Origin: Escherichia coli
GTDB lineage: Bacteria; Pseudomonadota; Gammaproteobacteria; Enterobacterales; Enterobacteriaceae
Assembly: GCF_050920415.1 (NCBI RefSeq)
Contig: NZ_CP169309.1
Reading direction: 5' to 3' (one strand)
Length of the DNA stretch: 64,000 nucleotides
Shown here in pieces: positions 2,049 to 23,742 of the stretch; the first letter of the stretch is position 1; each line of letters opens with the position of its first letter. The notes under the pieces are model-generated. The model was not told the DNA's origin. It did not search any database and saw only the letters and a program-made list of their open reading frames with translations. Made by a program: the position numbers and the translations under genes.

Positions 2049-3320
2049 TTAAACTCGCAATAATGCGCTTCCAAGATAATCGCTCGCGTCCTTCACCCCC
2101 GGCAGCGCAAAAAAATAACCGCCGCCGATGGGTTTAACGTATTCCTCCAGCGCTTCACCATTGAGCCTTTTTTGTACTGTCAGGAAGCCCTTTTCCAGAT
2201 CGTGTTGGTAGCAGACAAACAGCAACCCCATATCCAGTTGCCCGGAGTTGGTAACACCCAACGAATAACTGTAGCCACGACGCAGCATCAGACTAGACTC
2301 GCTCTCCGTCGTGCGGGGATTCGCCAGCCGGATATGGCTGTCCAGCGCGATCACCTTCCCTTCCGGATCACTGGCGTAATCGGGAACATCATGCTCATGC
2401 TGCATTCCCAGCGGCGCACCGGTTTGCTTATCGCGACCAAAAATTGTCTGCTGTTCTTTCAGCGGCGTTCTGTCCCAAAATTCCACTCGAAACTGAATCA
2501 AACGCACCGCCTGGTAGCTGCCGCCGATAGCCCACGCAGGCTCCAGCTGATCTGCCGTCACCCACACTACTTTTTGCATCACTTTCGCATTTTGGCTGTC
2601 AGGATTAGCAGTGCCGTCTTTGAAGCCCAACAAATTAATCGGCGTCTCTTTGCCTTTACTGCGCGCCGCGTGATCGGAAATAAACCCTTCCCGCTTCCAG
2701 CGCACGCTGAGCAAATCCGGCGTGTGTTTGATGATATCGCGCAGCGCATGGATCACCGTGTCCTGGGTGTTGGCGCAAATCTGTAGCAACACATCACCAT
2801 GACATAACGCCGCATCAAGCGAGTCGTTAGGGAAACGTGTCATCTTCTGCAACTTTTTCGGCATCTGCTGCGCAAGGCCAAAACGCTCATCAAACAATGA
2901 GTAGCCCACCGATAACGTGATGGTGAGATTATCGGGCGCAATGTAGCCGCCAAGAATGCCGGAATCGCGTGGCGGCAGGCGTGGATTTGGCGTTTCTGGT
3001 GCTGCTCCGCCCTGAGTCAGAAAAGCAAAACGCTGAGTCAACAAGCGAAACAATCGCTCAAGATCAGCTTTATCGCTGGCAAGCACATCAAACGCCACCA
3101 GCATCATTGCCGCCTGCTGCGGCGTCAGAATACCCGCCTGATGTTCGCCATAAAACGGCTGCGCTTCACTGCGCGCATCCGGTGAAAGCGTCCCCGGCGC
3201 ACTTTGCGTTTTTTGAGCATGCGCTACCGGACAACTTCCTGCCAGTGCCAGCGCGCCAATCCCTTTCAGTAAACGTCGGCGTGACGGTTCATTCACGCCG
3301 TTTTCATCTTCATACTGCAT
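2049..3320 (-). CDS. efeB: EfeB, Tat-secreted heme (DyP-type) peroxidase of the EfeUOB iron uptake system
   Basis: 423-aa ORF; twin-arginine signal ([16 protein letters not shown]); matches recalled EfeB/YcdB. Confidence 0.93.
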
Positions 3321-3325
3321 TACGC

Positions 3326-4453
3326 TTAATCCAGTCCCAGCACACCACGAAGTTGCGCCAGATCTTCCGCCAGCGCAGTAATCGGCCCTTTCAGCGCATT
3401 ACGGTCGGCATCGGTCAGCTTGTCGTAGGTTTCAAAACCGTCTTTAGTACGATATTTCGCCAGAATGGTATCGACCTTTTTGAAGTTAGCATCGACTTTT
3501 GCCAGCAGTTCCGGGTTGGCTTTTTGTAGTTGTGGACGCAGCAGATCGACAATTTTCTGCGAGCCTTCAACGTTAGCCTGGAAGTCCCACAGATCGGTGT
3601 GGCTGTAGCGATCTTCTTCACCGCTGATTTTGCTGGCTGCTACTTCCTCAATCAGTCCGGCTGCGCCGCCGACCACTTTTGAAGGTGGGAAAGCCAGTTC
3701 ACTGATGCGTTTTTGCAAATCGACCACATCGGTATAAAGCTGGTCAGCGTACTGATCCATCCCTTTGGTGGTGTTATCGCCAAACAATGCTTTTTCCAGA
3801 CGGTGGAAACCGGTGAATTTCGGATCGGCGGCTTTTTGCTCGTAATCATCTTCACGGGCGTCAATGCTGCCATCCAGATCGGAGAAAAGTTCAGCAATCG
3901 GTTCAATGCGCTCATAGTGCTGGCGCGTCGGCGCATACAGTGCTTTCGCTTTTTCGATATCGCCTGCTTTAATAGCGTCGGTAAAGGCTTTGGTGTCGGT
4001 CACCAGTTGCGTGGTTTCCGCCATGACATACGCTTTATATGCAGTAATTGCACCACCAAGACTTAACAGCGCATCACTTTGCGCCGCATCCGCCGTTGCC
4101 TCACCTTTGACGATCAACTTCCCTTTCGGGTTAGTCAGCAGACCGCAGGTCATATCGTATTCGCCAGGCTGTAAATTCGCCGTCATTTTCTGGCTAAAAC
4201 CAGGGGCGATATTTTCCCGCTCTTCCACCACCATCACGCCTTTGAGGATCTCCCACTCCAGCGCCTTCTGGCTGTGGTTCTGAATAATGAACTGTGTTTT
4301 CCCGGCGTTAACCGTAATGGTCATCGGTTCGCACTGTTTATCTGTCACAGTGACTTTGACCTGCGGAATATCAGCGGCGTTAGCCATAAAAGCAGAAGAG
4401 AACAGCGCAGCCACGCTCAACTGCAATGCGTTACGGCGGAAGTTAATGGTCAT
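3326..4453 (-). CDS. efeO: EfeO, periplasmic iron-binding component
   Basis: 375-aa ORF with signal peptide, 5 bp downstream of efeB start region; matches recalled EfeO/YcdO. Confidence 0.93.
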
Positions 4454-4510
4454 GACGAGACTATCCCTTTAAAGTATGTTGTAACTAAGCAAGAGTTTGC
4501 GTCATTTTCG

Positions 4511-5341
4511 TTACGCGGAGCGAGACGCTGTCGCCCCTGCGCGCGGCGGCAGAGCAAATGCCACCAGCGCCGGGATGAGATAAATAAACCAGACGGCGAC
4601 TTCGCTGACGCTCGGCGCTTCCTGATAACCAAAGATACCTTCCATCAGCGTACCGAACAGCGAGTGAGTTGAGAGCACCGCGCTCATATCGAAGGCGATT
4701 TCCTGAAAGTGGTTCCACAGCCCGGCTTCATGAAACGCGCGAATAGCACCAGCAGCCAGCCCTGCGGCGACGAAGAGAATAAACAGGCTGGTCCATTTAA
4801 AAAACGCGCCAAGATTGAGGCGAATACCGCCCCAGTAGAGCAGGAAGCCGAGCACCACGGCTGTAGCAAGACCGAGCATTGCACCCAGCGGAGGCCAGAT
4901 ACCGACATCTTGTTGAAACGCCGCCAGCAGGAAAAAGACCGACTCCAGTCCTTCCCTTGCAACGGCAAAAAAGACCATCATCACCAGCGCCCAGCCATGA
5001 TGATTCCCACGCTGCAATGCGCTATCGACTGCCTGTTCCAGTTGCACTTTGACGTTGCGCGACACTTTACGCATCCAGAAAACCATCCAGGTGAGGATCA
5101 CCACGGCAATCACCGCCACGATACCTTCGAACAATTCCTGCTCTTTTTGCGGAAATTCGCCGGTAGTTTCATTAATGAATATACCCAGCCCCAGGCACAA
5201 CGCAGCGGCTAGCAACACGCCAATCCACATGACACCAATCCATCGACCTCGCTGGGTACGCTTAAGATAGCTGGCAATCAGGCTGACAATCAGCGCGGCT
5301 TCAAGTCCTTCGCGCAACATAATGAGAAACGGAACAAACAT
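4511..5341 (-). CDS. efeU: EfeU, ferrous iron permease (FTR1 family), apparently intact
   Basis: continuous 276-codon frame from MFVPFLIMLREGLEAAL; REGLE motifs present; no frameshift visible (K-12 carries a frameshifted copy). Confidence 0.88.
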   Translation of the reverse strand: MFVPFLIMLREGLEAALIVSLIASYLKRTQRGRWIGVMWIGVLLAAALCLGLGIFINETTGEFPQKEQELFEGIVAVIAVVILTWMVFWMRKVSRNVKVQLEQAVDSALQRGNHHGWALVMMVFFAVAREGLESVFFLLAAFQQDVGIWPPLGAMLGLATAVVLGFLLYWGGIRLNLGAFFKWTSLFILFVAAGLAAGAIRAFHEAGLWNHFQEIAFDMSAVLSTHSLFGTLMEGIFGYQEAPSVSEVAVWFIYLIPALVAFALPPRAGATASRSA

Positions 5342-5394
5342 GCCACCCACCCTTAAACGTTTTTCTGAGTCAATCTATGCAAAGAAAAGTAAAT

Positions 5395-5460
5395 CGCAGT
5401 GATAGCGATTATCATTACGGTGAAGAAAAACACAAGCGGAATGTAGTGATAATGATGAGG
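5395..5460 (-). promoter_or_regulatory. putative Fur boxes in efeU promoter region
   Basis: gatagcgattatcattac and gtgataatgatgagg resemble the GATAATGATAATCATTATC Fur consensus; efeUOB is known to be Fur-regulated. Confidence 0.4.
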
Positions 5461-5490
5461 AAATGTAAATTTTTTTTGAGAGAAAATGCA

Positions 5491-5513
5491 GAGGGCAATC
5501 ACTGATTGCCCTC
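5491..5513 (-). terminator. hairpin downstream of putP
   Basis: gagggcaat-cactg-attgccctc stem-loop followed by a U-rich stretch on the minus-strand transcript. Confidence 0.5.
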
Positions 5514-5560
5514 TGCCTGCTTCTGATTATGACGTGGGATTTTCGGTAAAACGCCTTCCC

Positions 5561-7069
<1,509 letters not shown>

Positions 7070-7257
7070 CTAAAGTCTCCAAAAAATTATTATCGGCAAT
7101 GTCGAAACTTGCCGTTATATCTGCCACCGGAACGGGGTAACAGAGTTTATGTTTTCCCAGGGCGACCGTATCCTGCCGGAAGCGCTGGTTATTCACAATC
7201 GATTTAACACACCATTTACATTAAATTTTAGTGCTCAGCGATACTATTTTTCATCAG

Positions 7258-7465
7258 GTTGCACTCCCTCACATTTTTTGCGGTTGCACCTTTCAAAAAT
7301 GTTAACTGCCGCAGAGAAAAAGTCTGAGTTATTTTTTTAATCCCTGTCATATCGATTTCTTTTATTAACATTTCATTCATTTTTAAGCTTGCTACGCAGG
7401 TCACATTTAACATGGTTGCACAAAGTTGCAACATCATGGATATTTCACGATAACGTTAAGTTGCA
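7258..7465. promoter_or_regulatory. put control region with five PutA operator motifs (GTTGCA)
   Basis: GTTGCA at 7258, 7283, 7415, 7425 and 7460 in the putP-putA intergenic region. Confidence 0.75.
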
Positions 7466-7491
7466 CCTTTCAGAACAACAGGAGTAATGGC

Positions 7492-10400
7492 ATGGGAACC
7501 ACCACCATGGGGGTTAAGCTGGACGACGCGACGCGTGAACGCATTAAGTCTGCCGCGACACGTATCGATCGCACACCGCACTGGTTAATTAAGCAGGCGA
7601 TTTTTTCTTATCTTGAACAACTGGAAAACAGCGATACTCTGCCAGAGCTACCTGCGCTGCTTTCTGGCGCGGCCAATGAGAGCGATGAAGTACCGAATCC
7701 GGCAGAGGAACCACACCAGCCATTCCTCGACTTTGCCGAGCAAATTTTGCCACAGTCGGTTTCCCGTGCGGCTATCACCGCCGCCTATCGCCGCCCGGAA
7801 ACCGAAGCGGTTTCTATGCTGCTGGAACAAGCTCGCCTGCCGCAGCCGGTTGCTGAACAGGCTCATAAACTGGCGTATCAACTGGCCGATAAACTGCGTA
7901 ATCAAAAAAATGCCAGTGGTCGCGCAGGCATGGTTCAGGGATTATTGCAGGAGTTTTCGCTGTCATCGCAGGAAGGCGTGGCGCTGATGTGTCTGGCGGA
8001 AGCGCTATTGCGTATTCCCGACAAAGCCACCCGTGATGCGTTAATACGCGACAAAATCAGCAACGGTAACTGGCAGTCACATATTGGTCGTAGCCCGTCG
8101 CTGTTTGTTAATGCCGCCACCTGGGGGCTTCTCTTTACCGGCAAACTGGTTTCTACCCATAACGAAGCCAGCCTCTCTCGTTCGCTGAATCGCATTATCG
8201 GTAAGAGTGGCGAACCGCTGATCCGCAAAGGTGTGGATATGGCGATGCGTCTGATGGGCGAGCAGTTCGTCACTGGTGAAACCATCGCGGAAGCGTTAGC
8301 CAATGCCCGCAAGCTGGAAGAGAAAGGTTTCCGTTACTCCTACGATATGCTGGGCGAAGCCGCACTGACCGCAGCGGACGCGCAGGCATATATGGTTTCC
8401 TATCAGCAGGCGATTCACGCTATTGGTAAAGCCTCCAATGGTCGTGGCATCTATGAAGGTCCAGGCATTTCAATCAAGCTATCGGCGCTGCATCCGCGCT
8501 ACAGCCGCGCCCAGTACGATCGGGTAATGGAAGAGCTTTACCCACGTCTGAAATCATTAACCTTGCTGGCGCGTCAGTACGATATTGGTATTAACATTGA
8601 TGCCGAAGAGGCCGATCGTCTGGAGATCTCCCTCGATCTGTTGGAAAAGCTTTGTTTCGAGCCTGAACTGGCAGGCTGGAACGGCATCGGTTTTGTTATT
8701 CAGGCTTATCAAAAACGCTGCCCGCTGGTGATCGATTACCTGATTGATCTCGCCACCCGCAGCCGCCGTCGTCTGATGATTCGCCTGGTGAAAGGCGCGT
8801 ACTGGGATAGTGAAATCAAACGTGCGCAAATGGACGGCCTTGAAGGTTATCCGGTTTATACCCGCAAGGTGTATACCGATGTTTCTTATCTCGCTTGTGC
8901 GAAAAAGCTGCTGGCGGTGCCAAATCTCATTTACCCACAGTTTGCAACGCACAACGCCCACACGCTGGCGGCGATTTATCAACTGGCAGGTCAAAACTAC
9001 TATCCGGGTCAGTACGAGTTCCAGTGCCTGCATGGTATGGGCGAGCCACTGTATGAGCAGGTCACCGGGAAAGTTGCCGACGGCAAACTTAACCGTCCGT
9101 GTCGTATTTATGCTCCGGTCGGTACCCATGAAACACTGCTGGCATATCTGGTGCGTCGCCTGCTGGAAAACGGTGCTAACACCTCGTTTGTTAACCGTAT
9201 TGCTGATACCTCTTTGCCACTGGATGAACTGGTTGCCGATCCAGTCACTGCAGTAGAAAAACTGGCGCAACAGGAAGGGCAAACTGGATTACCCCATCCG
9301 AAAATTCCCCTGCCGCGCGATCTTTACGGTCACGGGCGCGACAACTCGGCAGGGCTGGATCTCGCCAATGAACACCGGCTGGCATCACTCTCCTCTGCCC
9401 TGCTCAACAGTGCACTGCAAAAATGGCAGGCCTTGCCAATGCTGGAACAACCGGTCGCGGCTGGTGAAATGTCACCCGTTATCAACCCGGCGGAACCGAA
9501 AGATATTGTGGGCTATGTGCGTGAAGCCACGCCGCGTGAAGTAGAACAGGCGCTGGAAAGTGCAGTTAATAACGCGCCAATCTGGTTTGCCACGCCTCCG
9601 GCCGAACGCGCGGCGATTTTGCATCGCGCTGCCGTACTGATGGAAAGTCAGATGCAGCAACTGATTGGTATTCTGGTACGTGAGGCCGGAAAAACCTTCA
9701 GTAACGCCATTGCCGAAGTGCGTGAAGCCGTCGATTTTCTCCACTACTACGCGGGACAGGTGCGGGATGATTTCGCTAACGAAACCCACCGTCCATTAGG
9801 GCCTGTGGTGTGTATCAGCCCGTGGAATTTCCCGCTGGCGATTTTCACCGGGCAAATCGCTGCCGCACTGGCGGCAGGTAACAGCGTACTGGCAAAACCG
9901 GCAGAACAAACGCCGCTGATTGCCGCACAAGGGATTGCCATTTTGCTGGAAGCGGGTGTACCGCCAGGCGTGGTGCAGTTGTTGCCCGGTCAGGGTGAAA
10001 CCGTAGGCGCGCAACTGACGGGTGATGATCGCGTGCGCGGGGTTATGTTTACCGGTTCAACCGAAGTCGCTACGTTACTGCAACGCAATATCGCCAGCCG
10101 CCTGGACGCTCAGGGCCGCCCAATTCCACTCATTGCGGAAACCGGCGGCATGAACGCGATGATTGTCGATTCCTCCGCCCTGACCGAACAGGTCGTCGTG
10201 GATGTACTGGCCTCGGCCTTCGACAGTGCAGGTCAGCGTTGTTCGGCGCTGCGCGTGCTGTGTCTGCAAGATGAAATTGCCGACCACACGTTAAAAATGC
10301 TGCGCGGTGCAATGGCCGAATGCCGGATGGGTAATCCGGGTCGCCTGACCACCGATATCGGTCCGGTGATTGATGGCGAAGCGAAGACCAATATTGAGCG

Positions 10401-18648: not shown

Positions 18649-19263
<615 letters not shown>

Positions 19264-19283: not shown

Positions 19284-19511
19284 ATGCCAACTCAAGAAGC
19301 GAAAGCTCATCACGTCGGTGAATGGGCATCTCTGCGCAATACGTCGCCGGAAATAGCCGAGGCCATTTTCGAAGTCGCCGGGTACGACGAAAAAATGGCG
19401 GAAAAGATTTGGGAAGAAGGTAGCGATGAAGTGTTAGTCAAAGCCTTTGCTAAGACCGATAAAGATTCGCTTTTTTGGGGCGAACAGACCATCGAACGTA
19501 AAAACGTTTAA
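19284..19511 (+). CDS. yccJ: YccJ, small conserved protein
   Basis: 75-aa ORF 20 bp after wrbA with RBS caggagga; matches recalled YccJ. Confidence 0.9.
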
Positions 19512-19517
19512 TCCTGA

Positions 19518-19545
19518 ACCTCCCCCGTGGTGAACGGGGGAGTTT
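19518..19545 (+). terminator. rho-independent terminator after yccJ
   Basis: ctcccccg-tggtgaa-cgggggag stem-loop followed by tttt. Confidence 0.7.
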
Positions 19546-19888
19546 TCGATTATTCATTGACCAACGTCTCATGCCCTGTTATTACTGTGAGATATTCAAT
19601 CACGTTATCAAATAAAAAAATCGATATCATTGCGGTAAGCTTGTTATTGATTATAAATATGGGTAATAAGCGATATCCAGCATGAATTTGATTGTACAGA
19701 GTATTTCCTATATAGCCATTGGTTAAATCTTGAAGATAAGATACCTCCGGCTGAAAAATCCATCCCGGCAATGAAGGATGTGATATTTTCGTAATTCTCT
19801 TGCAGAATAAACAACCCTGGATACGCTCTGAATACAAGGAAATTTTCCAATAAATTATTTATTCATCAATACTCCCCGGCGAGGATCA

Positions 19889-20407
19889 TCAAAATATCTC
19901 ATTATCTTTTAAAACTGCCCAGCCCGTTATAACGGACGTTATCTGGCGCACGCTGAAGTGGGCATGATACTCACTTTCATTAAAATGCTCGACATGATTT
20001 GCTAATCGCTTAGCTAGATAATTGACGTTCAGTCTGTGCCAAATTTTTAGCGAAAAATAGCAAATTTCAAGCCGGGAATTTATCAAAGCATCCTCATTTA
20101 CTTCACCATGAACAATAAAGTCACGCATAAACTGCAGGTGTTTAATTAATAAAATCCATTCACTTTCAGTAAGATAGTTTTTCCCACGCAGATTATAATA
20201 CAGAGATTTGATTAATGGGATCTTCTGCTTATGGCGCTTTGACCGCGCTGAGCACAATATTTGTTCTATCAGGCCAAGCGTCCCTTTCTGACGCAACCAG
20301 CACCGGAGTTCAGACTGCGCGCTAATGCCGCGAGCCACCGACAAATGTATTTGGGTAAGCAATGCGTATAAACCTAATAAAAACGCGTCGTGATAATACC
20401 GCTTCAT
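19889..20407 (-). CDS. hypothetical protein (172 aa), second gene of the AT-rich insert between yccJ and agp
   Basis: ATG at 20407 with good RBS (aaggtggg, 5-6 nt spacing); lies 12 bp downstream of the preceding ORF stop; visibly AT-rich; no homolog recognised; C-terminal RLANHVEH resembles an R-x(4-6)-H motif. Confidence 0.6.
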   Translation of the reverse strand: MKRYYHDAFLLGLYALLTQIHLSVARGISAQSELRCWLRQKGTLGLIEQILCSARSKRHKQKIPLIKSLYYNLRGKNYLTESEWILLIKHLQFMRDFIVHGEVNEDALINSRLEICYFSLKIWHRLNVNYLAKRLANHVEHFNESEYHAHFSVRQITSVITGWAVLKDNEIF

Positions 20408-20419
20408 TACCCACCTTTG

Positions 20420-20788
20420 TTATCGTAATTTTTTAAACAAATAATCATATAAAATTTCGGCAATGAATTCTGCATGTTCACGTCGCACAATGACATTCAT
20501 AACGTAATATTGCGCAGCAATTTCATTGATAAAATGTTCAGGCAGTATGAATACGCGTGCATAAGCCGAGTATATTTCCAGTATTTCATTTGAGATGTTT
20601 TCAAGATCAACGCAATAATTTGTCACATCATAAAAAAGATTAGCGTATTTTTTATTAATTATGCTAAGGCATATAAATGGGGCATTTAATTTTTCACACA
20701 ATTGCCAGTGCGTTCTTTCATTTTCTCCCTTCCATGTATACTTCATTTTGTCAGCCATCCTTTGATTTACGCGTCTGAAGTTTACCAC
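20420..20788 (-). CDS. hypothetical protein (108-122 aa), first gene of the AT-rich insert
   Basis: maximal ORF begins at a GTG (20788); ATG candidates at 20758 and 20746 (MKYTWKGENERTHW, weak AGGA about 11 nt upstream); no homolog recognised. Confidence 0.5.
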   Translation of the reverse strand: MVNFRRVNQRMADKMKYTWKGENERTHWQLCEKLNAPFICLSIINKKYANLFYDVTNYCVDLENISNEILEIYSAYARVFILPEHFINEIAAQYYVMNVIVRREHAEFIAEILYDYLFKKLR

Positions 20789-20893
20789 TGTGTCTGGGGT
20801 AAACCATGCGTTCTATGGTAAAAATTATACGAGATGTGGCGCTGCGTAATATTCTGCTCCCTCAATATATTTCTGGTGAATATGTTCCAGGTT

Positions 20894-20926
20894 AATTGGG
20901 AAGATCTGCATGTGATCTTCCCAATT
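20894..20926. other. perfect 13-bp inverted repeat hairpin at the agp-proximal edge of the insert
   Basis: aattgggaagatc-tgcatgt-gatcttcccaatt; followed by a T-rich stretch on the plus strand only. Confidence 0.6.
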
Positions 20927-20955
20927 TTATGACTACAAAATGTCAATAGCCGGGT

Positions 20956-22197
20956 TTATTTCACCGCTTCATTCAACACGCTATCAAACTTATCCATTGG
21001 GCAGAAACCATCAGCGTCTATCGGGCAGCCGGTTAATTCCAGCGTCACGCGCTGAGCCGGAGCCTGCAACGTTAACGCATCAGCATTACGCAACTGTTCC
21101 GCACTCTGGTACACATATTCAATTTTCATCAAATCGCGATTAGCTTTGCTGTCATGCCAACGCTGGAAAACGATTTTGCCGCCAATCGGCGTGCGTTCGT
21201 TCTGGTCATGCAACTGATACGGTTTGAAATCCAGTGCCGTTAACAGAGAGGCAATGTTTGAGTCGTGCCCCACCAGCACCGTGATTTTCGGTGCACTAGT
21301 TCGATCGGTGACCAGTGCTTTGTCGATATAACTGACCAGCGGTTTCGCAACATTGCGCGCCACTTCCGGTGAGGTAAACAGGCTATCCTGGTAGCCGTTT
21401 TTCAGCTTCGACAATACTTTCCACTGTTGGTCAGTTTTGATCTCTCCCCACGCCACCTGATCCATCGGGAAACCTTCGTAGTATTGCAAAGTAAACGCAT
21501 CTACCAGCGAGTTGCCGACTTTCAGCGGCCCGGAAACGCCCGGTTCTTGTTGATACTTCGCGCTAAAGGTGTTTTTGCCATCTACAAGCGAACACTGTTG
21601 CTTCTCTTTACAGGCAGGAGAATCTTTATAGTTAACGATTTTTTCCAGTAGCTTGTAGCTGTCGGTAAGCTGGAGTTTGCCGAGCTCTTTCTCCATTGCC
21701 GCCACCGCCTGTTCACTGAATGCGGCGGAATCATCGGTGATCACCGGGTTAAAGGTTGGGTCCATGGTGCCCATTTTTTCCTGGTGATGAACAGGAATAT
21801 CACACCCGGGGAATGCGCCGGTAATAAAGAACTGCGCGGTCGCGACGGTGCGTTGCAGACTATTGGCATAGGCATAAACGGTGTCCGGCGGCGGGCATTC
21901 ACCCGATTTCACCATCCCCTGCTCTGCCAGCCATTCACGCATGTAATGGCCCATATACACTTCGAGTACTCCCCCTTTAGTGGTGAGCTGCCCACCGGGA
22001 ACGTCCCATTCTGGCCATTTATTCGGCGTCGACTGCTCCAGCACACTGCCATTGTTCGCCAGCGGCGCACGTAAGTTATGGCGGCTCATCATGAGCACTT
22101 GCTGCAACTGATAGCCTTCCGGTACGGTTTGTGCCTGAGCATTTGAAGCGAGTAAAACTATCCCTGCCACAGCTGCGGCGATTAGCGTTTTGTTCAT
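20956..22197 (-). CDS. agp: Agp, periplasmic glucose-1-phosphatase (histidine acid phosphatase)
   Basis: 413-aa frame from [22 protein letters not shown]; RHNLRAP active-site motif; matches recalled Agp. Confidence 0.95.
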
Positions 22198-22488: not shown

Positions 22489-23742
22489 TTAAATGGCATA
22501 ACGATTTAAATAGTCCAGTTGCGCTTTCATTTCCTTATGGTTTAACTGGTATGACTGAGCAAAAAGTTCAGTAGGGAGGTAAACGTCATAATGATTGCCA
22601 GTATTCATTAAATAACCATACTCAAGATCTTCATCCGTTGAAAAGGATTCACTTCCCAAGGAGATTGATCCCACATTACAGGCAACAATAAACAATGAAC
22701 AAATGCTATCTGAAAGCACAGCAAGGAAATTCTTCACCGCTTTAACCTTTTCCGGAGAGTCGGTATTTAAAACAAGCGAACCCTTGTTATCATTAAATAT
22801 AAACTCGGGTAAATGCAATATGCATCTTTCGTCATTCAAGCAACTACCAATGAATTCTTTTTTAAACTTAATAAAATTCGACGCTAAAGAATTACCCATA
22901 TCCTGAATTTGGTTGTCAGAATGCAGATCAACGCCAAATAATGTCTTAATCTCTTCCCTGAGATTAAAGAATGCTGCATCAACAAAAGACTCAATCACTT
23001 GTTTATCAACAATTTTAATAAATTCGTCGTATACTTCTTTTTGCGTCTTTTGACTGCCAAGCGCCCATGAATAATCAACGTGTTTTATAACCAGTATGGC
23101 TCTTAACAGACAATATCCATCGCCATCTACAGGCGCGTATTTTAATTTATGTGCTTGATTAATTTCACTCTGAATAAAAGATATACCAGACAAATCAATA
23201 CCAGTAACTGAATCATATATTCCCGGCGTATTTATCCGTTTTGGCTGGACACTCGTAATTTCATCATCATCAAAGCAATACTCAGAAAAAACATCATTAC
23301 ACTCATTTAAGATATCAACATATGCTATAAATTTATACCAACAGCTACTTTTAAAGCCTGCAATAGCCTGTGAAAACATACCCGGCAAGGATATATTAAC
23401 AAGCTCTCTTTCTTGAAAATATTGTATAGTATAGGTAATGCCTCCTGAATCCCCTGAATAAGTGTTTGTATCATGAGTACGTAATGTTTTCATAAATGAA
23501 GATAAATCATTATCATTTTGCATTTCCTCTAATTCTGTTTCTAGTGATTCACACACCAGGCATGAAATATTTTCTTCTTTCCGCATGATTTCATTGTACA
23601 ACCGCATAAAACACTCTAGTTTTTGTTCAAAAAGCGTGATTGAACATTTTTGATTTTCTTCGCGCCTGGTTTTTATATCGGCCCAGGCTGTTTTCAAATA
23701 ATTATTAGCACTGCAACTTACTCCATGTATATTACTACCCAT
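22489..23742 (-). CDS. yccE: YccE-like uncharacterized protein
   Basis: 417-aa AT-rich ORF between agp and cbpA, the position of yccE in K-12; identity rests on position and size only. Confidence 0.7.
   Translation of the reverse strand: MGSNIHGVSCSANNYLKTAWADIKTRREENQKCSITLFEQKLECFMRLYNEIMRKEENISCLVCESLETELEEMQNDNDLSSFMKTLRTHDTNTYSGDSGGITYTIQYFQERELVNISLPGMFSQAIAGFKSSCWYKFIAYVDILNECNDVFSEYCFDDDEITSVQPKRINTPGIYDSVTGIDLSGISFIQSEINQAHKLKYAPVDGDGYCLLRAILVIKHVDYSWALGSQKTQKEVYDEFIKIVDKQVIESFVDAAFFNLREEIKTLFGVDLHSDNQIQDMGNSLASNFIKFKKEFIGSCLNDERCILHLPEFIFNDNKGSLVLNTDSPEKVKAVKNFLAVLSDSICSLFIVACNVGSISLGSESFSTDEDLEYGYLMNTGNHYDVYLPTELFAQSYQLNHKEMKAQLDYLNRYAI

Follow-up and report, generated by a model that had tools for sequence, protein, structure and literature searches.

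Here we describe an AT-rich accessory insert that lies between yccJ and agp in a 64-kb stretch of the Escherichia coli chromosome (contig NZ_CP169309.1; all 64,000 nucleotides of it are called the window below). With a probability of roughly three in four, we read this insert as a small, toxin-less, heterogeneous polyimmunity locus of three unrelated orphan immunity genes, here named A, B and C, that is partly decayed. We take the genes to be orphan immunity genes because relatives of A, B and C elsewhere sit directly behind polymorphic toxin C-termini. All three lie on the minus strand, co-directional with agp:

19548..20954, no strand assigned: AT-rich accessory insert of ~1,407 bp, bounded by the yccJ terminator and the stop codon of agp
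20420..20746, minus strand: gene A, 108 aa, WP_000878101.1 (annotated 'hypothetical protein'), a predicted orphan immunity protein
20408..20419, minus strand: A-B spacer of 12 bp, holding the Shine-Dalgarno-like AAAGGTGGG upstream of the gene B ATG
19889..20407, minus strand: gene B, 172 aa, WP_000833427.1, a predicted orphan immunity protein
19550..19866, minus strand: gene C remnant, a pseudogene here and intact elsewhere (100-105 aa), a predicted immunity-type protein

The A reading frame gives 108 aa from its ATG or 122 aa from an upstream GTG, and the ATG start is backed by alignment with distant homologues. B follows after the 12-bp spacer and C after a further 22 bp; the tight spacing and shared orientation suggest that A and B may be co-transcribed. 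The three proteins have no detectable similarity to one another and draw on separate sets of homologues, and their families are never found together outside Escherichia. As the sequence-only reading that first pointed to this interval had noted, the proteins belong to no nameable family: A, B, C and the remnant open reading frames (ORFs) gave nothing above noise against Pfam, NCBIfam, PADLOC and PHROGs (best values Rad10 0.043 and DNase_II 0.081). Furthermore, k-mer (word)-seeded protein searches returned Escherichia orthologues only, and PDB sequence searches with the A and B profiles returned nothing meaningful, a match to EspA (E 0.033) being coiled-coil noise.

For gene A, homologues 49-54% identical (E 3e-30 to 8e-38) were found at three loci by tblastn against plasmids, by a scan of one genome collection, whose contigs yielded a single locus, in Kosakonia, and by blastn of E. 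coli genomes. In E. coli JNE120442 (our locus L041), VgrG, DcrB/Eag and a full-length Rhs gene (2753-7348; product WP_286356113.1, with its tip behind DPLGL) are followed, after a 2-bp gap, by an A homologue (7351-7683) with 52% identity to window A (E 8e-38). On a Phytobacter plasmid (L027) an orphan Rhs C-terminus ends 2 bp ahead of the A homologue, and in Kosakonia (L034) an orphan Rhs C-terminus and the A homologue overlap by 4 bp. The Rhs C-termini at all three loci carry the same ~95-aa domain, a toxin tip with no Pfam or NCBIfam match, and B and C are absent from these loci. From this company, we predict that A is an orphan immunity protein against an uncharacterised family of Rhs C-terminal toxins, ~95 aa in length.

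The B family is small. A profile (hidden Markov model) scan of 1.84 billion representative proteins returned only 12 relatives, and the named members are all Enterobacterales (Superficieibacter, Citrobacter/Salmonella, Enterobacter, Proteus and Xenorhabdus). At three independent loci, B homologues stand 0-4 bp behind Rhs C-terminal domains: in Citrobacter werkmanii (L014; CP019986.1), VgrG, DUF2169 and PAAR-Rhs are followed by a B homologue overlapping by 4 bp; Enterobacter (L017-L020) has the same arrangement; and inside a T6SS (type VI secretion system) cluster of Proteus vulgaris (L038) an orphan Rhs C-terminus is followed 4 bp on by a B homologue. These B-associated Rhs tips are mutually homologous (51% identity, E 1e-33 to 1e-41), and such a tip matches the PGAP-annotated HYD1 ADP-ribosyltransferase (ART) of E. 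coli S10 at 32% identity (E 3e-8). Other B homologues have no toxin beside them, one in Proteus alimentorum (L036) and one standing alone in Superficieibacter (L035), and no A or C homologue is present at any of the B-homologue loci. We predict that B is an orphan immunity protein of a family found behind ART-HYD1-like Rhs toxins. Its AlphaFold2 (AF2) model is all-alpha, a generic four-helix bundle (predicted local distance difference test 80.7), and this helical bundle, as modelled, looks non-enzymatic.

Two of these comparisons brought observations of their own. In E. coli S10 (L042, 5037-5844) the gene behind the HYD1 ART Rhs tip encodes a protein of 154 aa without kinship to the B family, and thus ART-HYD1-type tips use at least two unrelated immunity families; the S10 rhs gene is frameshifted. 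In P. alimentorum (L036, 1-7483) we observe at least eight small same-strand ORFs without a Pfam match (one DUF6707), the last of which is the B-family gene, next to an integrase fragment, and the ORF directly upstream of it has a barstar-like GYIGRDFHGFDD motif. This run looks like a larger polyimmunity locus.

The C family is related to a Streptomyces family (hhalign probability 96.6%, E 6.9e-10; 44 bits in hmmsearch). One Streptomyces relative (L029) lies 12 bp behind a HINT-type polymorphic toxin, whose tip has no Pfam or NCBIfam match, and another adjoins an SMI1/KNR4 gene. C is accordingly placed here as a predicted immunity-type protein.

Orphan immunity genes of T6SS, Rhs and contact-dependent inhibition systems are well known, as are polyimmunity loci. 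Heterogeneous polyimmunity loci have been defined as tandem, co-oriented, tightly spaced arrays of unrelated immunity genes that lack toxin cassettes and vary between strains (Zhang, Aravind et al. 2012, PMC3482391). The insert likewise is a same-strand tandem with short spacers, made of unrelated immunity-type families, uninterrupted by toxin cassettes and variable in content between strains, with different members pseudogenised in different carriers. Homologues of A and B are co-oriented with, and directly downstream of, toxin C-terminal domains, as is one homologue of C, and for A and B the immunity family covaries with the toxin family. Neither a T6SS, nor an Rhs gene, nor any toxin gene is present in the 64-kb window, and no Rhs-like or toxin-like ORF lies within 19548-20954; tblastn of the partner toxins against the window gave a chance-level match only, outside the insert. 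The insert differs from the published loci in having three genes, as against 4-19 in the 'extended' ones, and in lacking an adjacent recombinase, a frequent though not obligatory trait: no integrase or recombinase is found near it. It also differs in sitting at a fixed core-genome site in three Escherichia species with no obvious mobile element, in comprising families of which none is in the Pfam Imm/SUKH collections, and in visibly decaying.

Under this polyimmunity reading, A, B and C would be small cytoplasmic proteins, each binding and blocking one kind of toxin domain from competitors, and the incoming toxins would be delivered by Rhs/type VI secretion (or related) polymorphic toxin systems. 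Specifically, A would counter the uncharacterised ~95-aa Rhs C-terminal toxin carried by some E. coli, B would counter an ART-HYD1-like ADP-ribosyltransferase Rhs tip, and C would counter one further toxin, such that the bearer would be protected without carrying the weapons. The window alleles would be expressed, would bind their toxins at the present day, and would have matching toxin alleles in other bacteria. The array has the same chromosomal position in all three of E. coli, E. albertii and E. fergusonii, between which it would move by homologous recombination through its flanks, and it is now being lost piece by piece.

The site itself is unremarkable, the window being ordinary E. coli chromosome from pgaD through helD, with 100% identity to strain MFDS1022581. 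The features that frame the insert are:

18667-19263, plus strand: wrbA, flanking gene
19284-19511, plus strand: yccJ, flanking gene
19520..19546, plus strand: yccJ intrinsic terminator (hairpin 19520-19542 and T-run) from a terminator scan, marking the left edge of the insert
20956-22197, minus strand: agp, flanking gene, convergent with yccJ

The sequence-only reading had given yccJ and agp as convergent and a few tens of bp apart in K-12, and had described the DNA between them here as a visibly AT-rich, candidate accessory insert of about 1.4 kb. Indeed, the two genes are convergent with a 37-bp gap in a K-12-like genome, our comparison gives the insert a GC content of 32-42% against ~50-55% in its flanks, and a survey of complete E. 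coli genomes finds it to be rare, with 5 of 5,426 filled and 5,417 holding an empty yccJ-agp site. Its extent had been set from the yccJ terminator to a perfect hairpin at 20894-20926. The insert is there, and so is the hairpin with its 13-bp stem, but the right end has to be moved: alignment of filled and empty sites gives boundaries of ~19548-20954, leaving the hairpin inside, and at the empty site the yccJ terminator hairpin, with a different loop, adjoins agp directly. Similarly, the two co-directional ORFs 12 bp apart, with AAAGGTGGG as the ribosome-binding site of the second, hold up, but the count of two genes does not, since a third was missed; the 340 bp that had been left empty are the gene C remnant.

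Both E. albertii and E. fergusonii carry the same genes in the same agp-yccJ interval; within E. coli, a blastn search for distant matches detected no diverged A or B paralogues outside the five carriers. In E. albertii (L004, 8928-10299; L005 and L006) a transposase of the IS3 insertion sequence (IS) family (HTH_Tnp_1/rve) separates yccJ from gene B or from the C remnant, so this site is also a mobile-element target. In the window no direct repeats, IS element, integrase or recombinase flank the insert, and we therefore infer its origin, either homologous exchange through the flanks or ancestral presence followed by loss. An att-like duplication of the agp 3' end at the left end of the insert was considered and set aside, the best local match being 19 nt and too weak. 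The 3' end of the dead gene C (19593-19611) does resemble the 3' end of agp (20970-20987), with ATTCAATCACGTTATCAAA in the former and ATTCAA-CACGCTATCAAA in the latter, encoding FDNVIEY in C and FDSVLNE in agp. This match score is reached by 7 of 1,000 dinucleotide shuffles, and the likeness could be chance, or could be a trace of the origin of the insert or of a deletion.

The carriers differ in which genes they have kept. In the window A and B are intact and C is dead. Relative to the intact copies of C (8541-8843 in L007; 6009-6323 in strain N3, L002), the window copy has three lesions, namely a 2-bp deletion (ATG AAT AAA TAA), a CAA>TAA change and a 1-bp insertion. B is truncated to 119 aa by a 1-bp deletion frameshift in N3 and 2013C-4282, and the WL297 copy was counted as truncated from the same 1-nt shorter match. 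Gene A, in turn, shows no disruption in any of the carriers examined, three of which share an identical copy. Ratios of nonsynonymous to synonymous divergence (dN/dS) are 0.09-0.26 for A and 0.17-0.24 for B, as against 0-0.07 for wrbA, yccJ and agp, which marks A and B as real coding genes under relaxed purifying selection; the A and B lineages compared reach a synonymous divergence (dS) of up to 0.5.

Several observations weigh against an active polyimmunity locus. Immunity is usually allele-specific, and window A is ~52% and window B 23-37% identical to the homologues that occupy cognate positions, while cognate toxins of their own were not found; the link of the window A and B proteins to toxins, and their expression, we infer from sequence. 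The B-associated tips match Pfam Tox-ART-HYD1 (PF15633) at a marginal i-E of 6.4e-4, and the evidence on C consists of a single immunity-position case together with weak tblastn seeds from Streptomyces plasmids. A consensus promoter scan of the insert gave no promoter, passing over a TATAAT hexamer upstream of A with a poor -35. Furthermore, C is a pseudogene in the window and has lost its start codon to mutation in E. fergusonii and E. albertii; three of the five carriers among complete genomes (N3, 2013C-4282 and WL297) have a frameshifted B, whose truncated 119-aa allele is found on 261 public contigs, more than any intact allele; and 99.9% of complete E. coli genomes do without the insert. 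Such decay and rarity argue against a strong current benefit.

The lesions in C and B, the absence of the insert from nearly all genomes and the lack of a clear promoter in the scan are also what favours the idea that the insert is a non-functional relic, left over from an ancestral Escherichia locus or a long-lost toxin system and drifting to loss with no present benefit. We think this unlikely. It overlaps the polyimmunity reading in that the identities of the genes are the same, and the sole difference is their usefulness today. Against it, dN/dS of ~0.2 for A and B across lineages as far apart as the dS range above amounts to long-term purifying selection, A has been retained without a lesion in all the carriers examined, and B is nearly identical between the window and E. 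fergusonii (dS 0.037, as against 0.25 for wrbA), which indicates recent transfer and retention of an intact copy. Taken together, the purifying selection, the retention of A and the transfer of B argue that A and B were useful until recently.

A different proposal for the same DNA, put forward in the sequence-only reading, was a toxin/immunity or small anti-phage pair, with an HEPN-like motif in the 172-aa protein; in its sharpest form, A and B would be a two-gene toxin-antitoxin or anti-phage module in which B is an HEPN-like RNase toxin and A its antitoxin. The tight coupling of two genes with a strong ribosome-binding site in accessory, AT-rich DNA is in keeping with this, and B, like HEPN toxins such as HepT of HepT/MNT, is a small all-alpha bundle. 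Foldseek searches of AFDB50 with the B model returned family members, then uncharacterised 165-195-aa Bacteroidota proteins (E 1e-3 to 6e-2), together with many HEPN-annotated models, all of these last sub-threshold (E 0.2-1.2, TM 0.25-0.40). The motif, however, does not survive comparison. The residues invariant in the 13-sequence alignment of the B family are E83, R125, E140 and H141, with a conserved core (L)A(D)xVEHFNQ, and neither R-x(4-6)-H candidate is among them: R134, in RLANHVEH, is replaced by Q in an Escherichia orthologue (P0003) and in the wider family R has no fixed position, while the classic-looking R95-DFIV-H100 is confined to Escherichia, with R95 and H100 absent in P0012-P0022. 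B has no Pfam HEPN/DUF86 match and no MNT-type partner, its family context is that of polymorphic-toxin immunity rather than of a toxin-antitoxin module, and neither A nor B has a PADLOC, Pfam or NCBIfam match. Nothing supports a nuclease role for B, which may nonetheless have a dead HEPN-like ancestry. The pairing fares no better, as homologues of A and of B are never found together outside Escherichia, each standing behind a different Rhs toxin; each family also turns up without the other, that of B at L035, L023 and L036. Many strains combine an intact A with a frameshifted B, and none has lost A alone; this excludes A as a toxin checked by B and is uninformative for B as the toxin. What remains of the proposal is its conflict-system setting; the two-gene pair gives way to separate families with no toxin, and we regard the toxin-antitoxin or anti-phage version as very improbable.

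The polyimmunity reading can also be set against the history of the alleles, which is a mosaic. Values of dS between the window and two other carriers are as follows:

Window versus E. coli L007, A and B: dS 0.34-0.37
Window versus E. coli L007, wrbA and yccJ: dS 0.02-0.04
Window versus E. fergusonii, B: dS 0.037
Window versus E. fergusonii, wrbA: dS 0.25

Within E. coli, then, A and B are far more diverged than their neighbours on the yccJ side, and across species the relation is reversed for B. We interpret this mosaic as old allele lineages that have probably been swapped across species by homologous recombination through the flanks. The agp allele of the window shares only 92.5% identity with agp of the K-12 type. 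Even in comparison with other E. coli that bear the insert, it shows dS of 0.24-0.28, while wrbA and yccJ show 0.02-0.06, with a sharp divergence boundary at the yccJ terminator that suggests old or introgressed haplotypes. Beside agp, a yccE-like gene (22489-23742, minus strand) is AT-rich, at 31-37% GC, and annotated only as 'hypothetical' or YccE family; it has 81-89% nucleotide identity to N3, L007 and a K-12-like genome, where wrbA and yccJ have ~99%, and at the loci of E. albertii and E. fergusonii it is absent or unrecognisable.

It is on the grounds that the A, B and agp/yccE allele lineages are far older than the flanking core genes that one could go further and see in yccJ-agp an ancient immunity locus of the whole genus Escherichia, whose polymorphism is maintained by warfare between bacteria; the B family would then have a new, all-alpha immunity fold, perhaps derived from a HEPN domain that has lost its catalytic activity, and would block ART-HYD1 toxins that target rRNA. 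We consider this extended version quite unlikely.

Known systems offer a guide to how B might act. Tre23, an ART-HYD1 toxin of Photorhabdus laumondii, acts on 23S rRNA by ADP-ribosylation, and Tri23 neutralises it by binding it directly (PMC8661411). The B-associated toxins are likewise Rhs C-termini that match the Tox-ART-HYD1 family, whose active site consists of H-Y-[DE] residues, in VgrG-chaperone-PAAR/Rhs loci, and direct binding is the mechanism we propose for B; the window differs in holding no toxin, and the partner toxin matches PF15633 at the marginal value given above. The Xenorhabdus members of the B family make kinship with Tri23 (Plu0352) possible. For Salmonella RhsA-Tox-ART-HYD1 effectors, PMC10469887 lists candidate immunity proteins in which no domain is recognised. 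In Salmonella Typhimurium, TreTu is an Rhs ART toxin that acts on EF-Tu and whose active site is occluded by TriTu (PMC9825190, PDB 7ZHM). There too an Rhs-delivered ART toxin is paired with a small immunity protein, and a B-associated toxin contains a weak echo of Pfam TreTu_C; TriTu, however, combines two helices with a beta-sheet of five strands, in contrast to the all-alpha B, and the B profile has no sequence match among PDB chains.

Two further features of the insert may bear on its transcription:

20894..20926, minus strand: perfect hairpin with a 13-bp stem and 7-nt loop, ~29 nt downstream of the agp stop, inside the insert
20824..20829, minus strand: TATAAT, a perfect -10-like hexamer, 78 nt upstream of the gene A start, a candidate promoter element

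All carriers keep the hairpin, with some mismatches of the outer stem in L007, E. albertii and E. fergusonii; within E. coli it is found in the five insert-bearing genomes only. No U-run follows it on the minus strand. It is possible that it serves as the agp terminator, or as an RNA-end structure, in insert-bearing strains. The TATAAT hexamer sits in a conserved 150-nt leader with a weak -35, and its sequence and position would fit a promoter element of gene A; A and B might otherwise be reached by read-through from agp past the hairpin.

Elsewhere, the E. fergusonii locus L010 (4356-7662) has no gene called at the agp position, yet its DNA aligns to agp at ~90-95%, and agp may be a pseudogene in that assembly; its cbpAM-agp interval holds other genes (LysR, DAO, RidA). 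Within the window, at ~55290-57870, RefSeq annotation of the identical strain indicates a decayed integrated element by tRNA-Ser, between hyaA and yccA, comprising a fragment of Ail/Lom, one small gene of hypothetical product, genes for tRNA-Gly and tRNA-Arg, and an integrase that is truncated.

What is new here is the description of three immunity-type families outside the Pfam Imm collections, the linking of B-family genes to ART-HYD1-like Rhs tips, and of A-family genes to an Rhs tip that has no name, and a fixed core-genome location common to three Escherichia species. A false lead is also removed: the insert does not represent a new anti-phage or HEPN system. Its value in practice lies chiefly in annotation and in the choice of toxin/immunity pairs, rather than in a new kind of biology: WP_000878101.1 and WP_000833427.1, and the unannotated families to which they belong, gain a testable predicted function. 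The tips that they are predicted to counter, an uncharacterised Rhs tip and an ART-HYD1-like one, are found in Citrobacter/Salmonella, Enterobacter, Proteus and some E. coli. More broadly, E. coli can hold what appear to be stand-alone immunity genes at an ordinary core-genome site, far from any T6SS or rhs element, and such genes may matter for the ways in which strains withstand one another's contact-dependent weapons in the gut.

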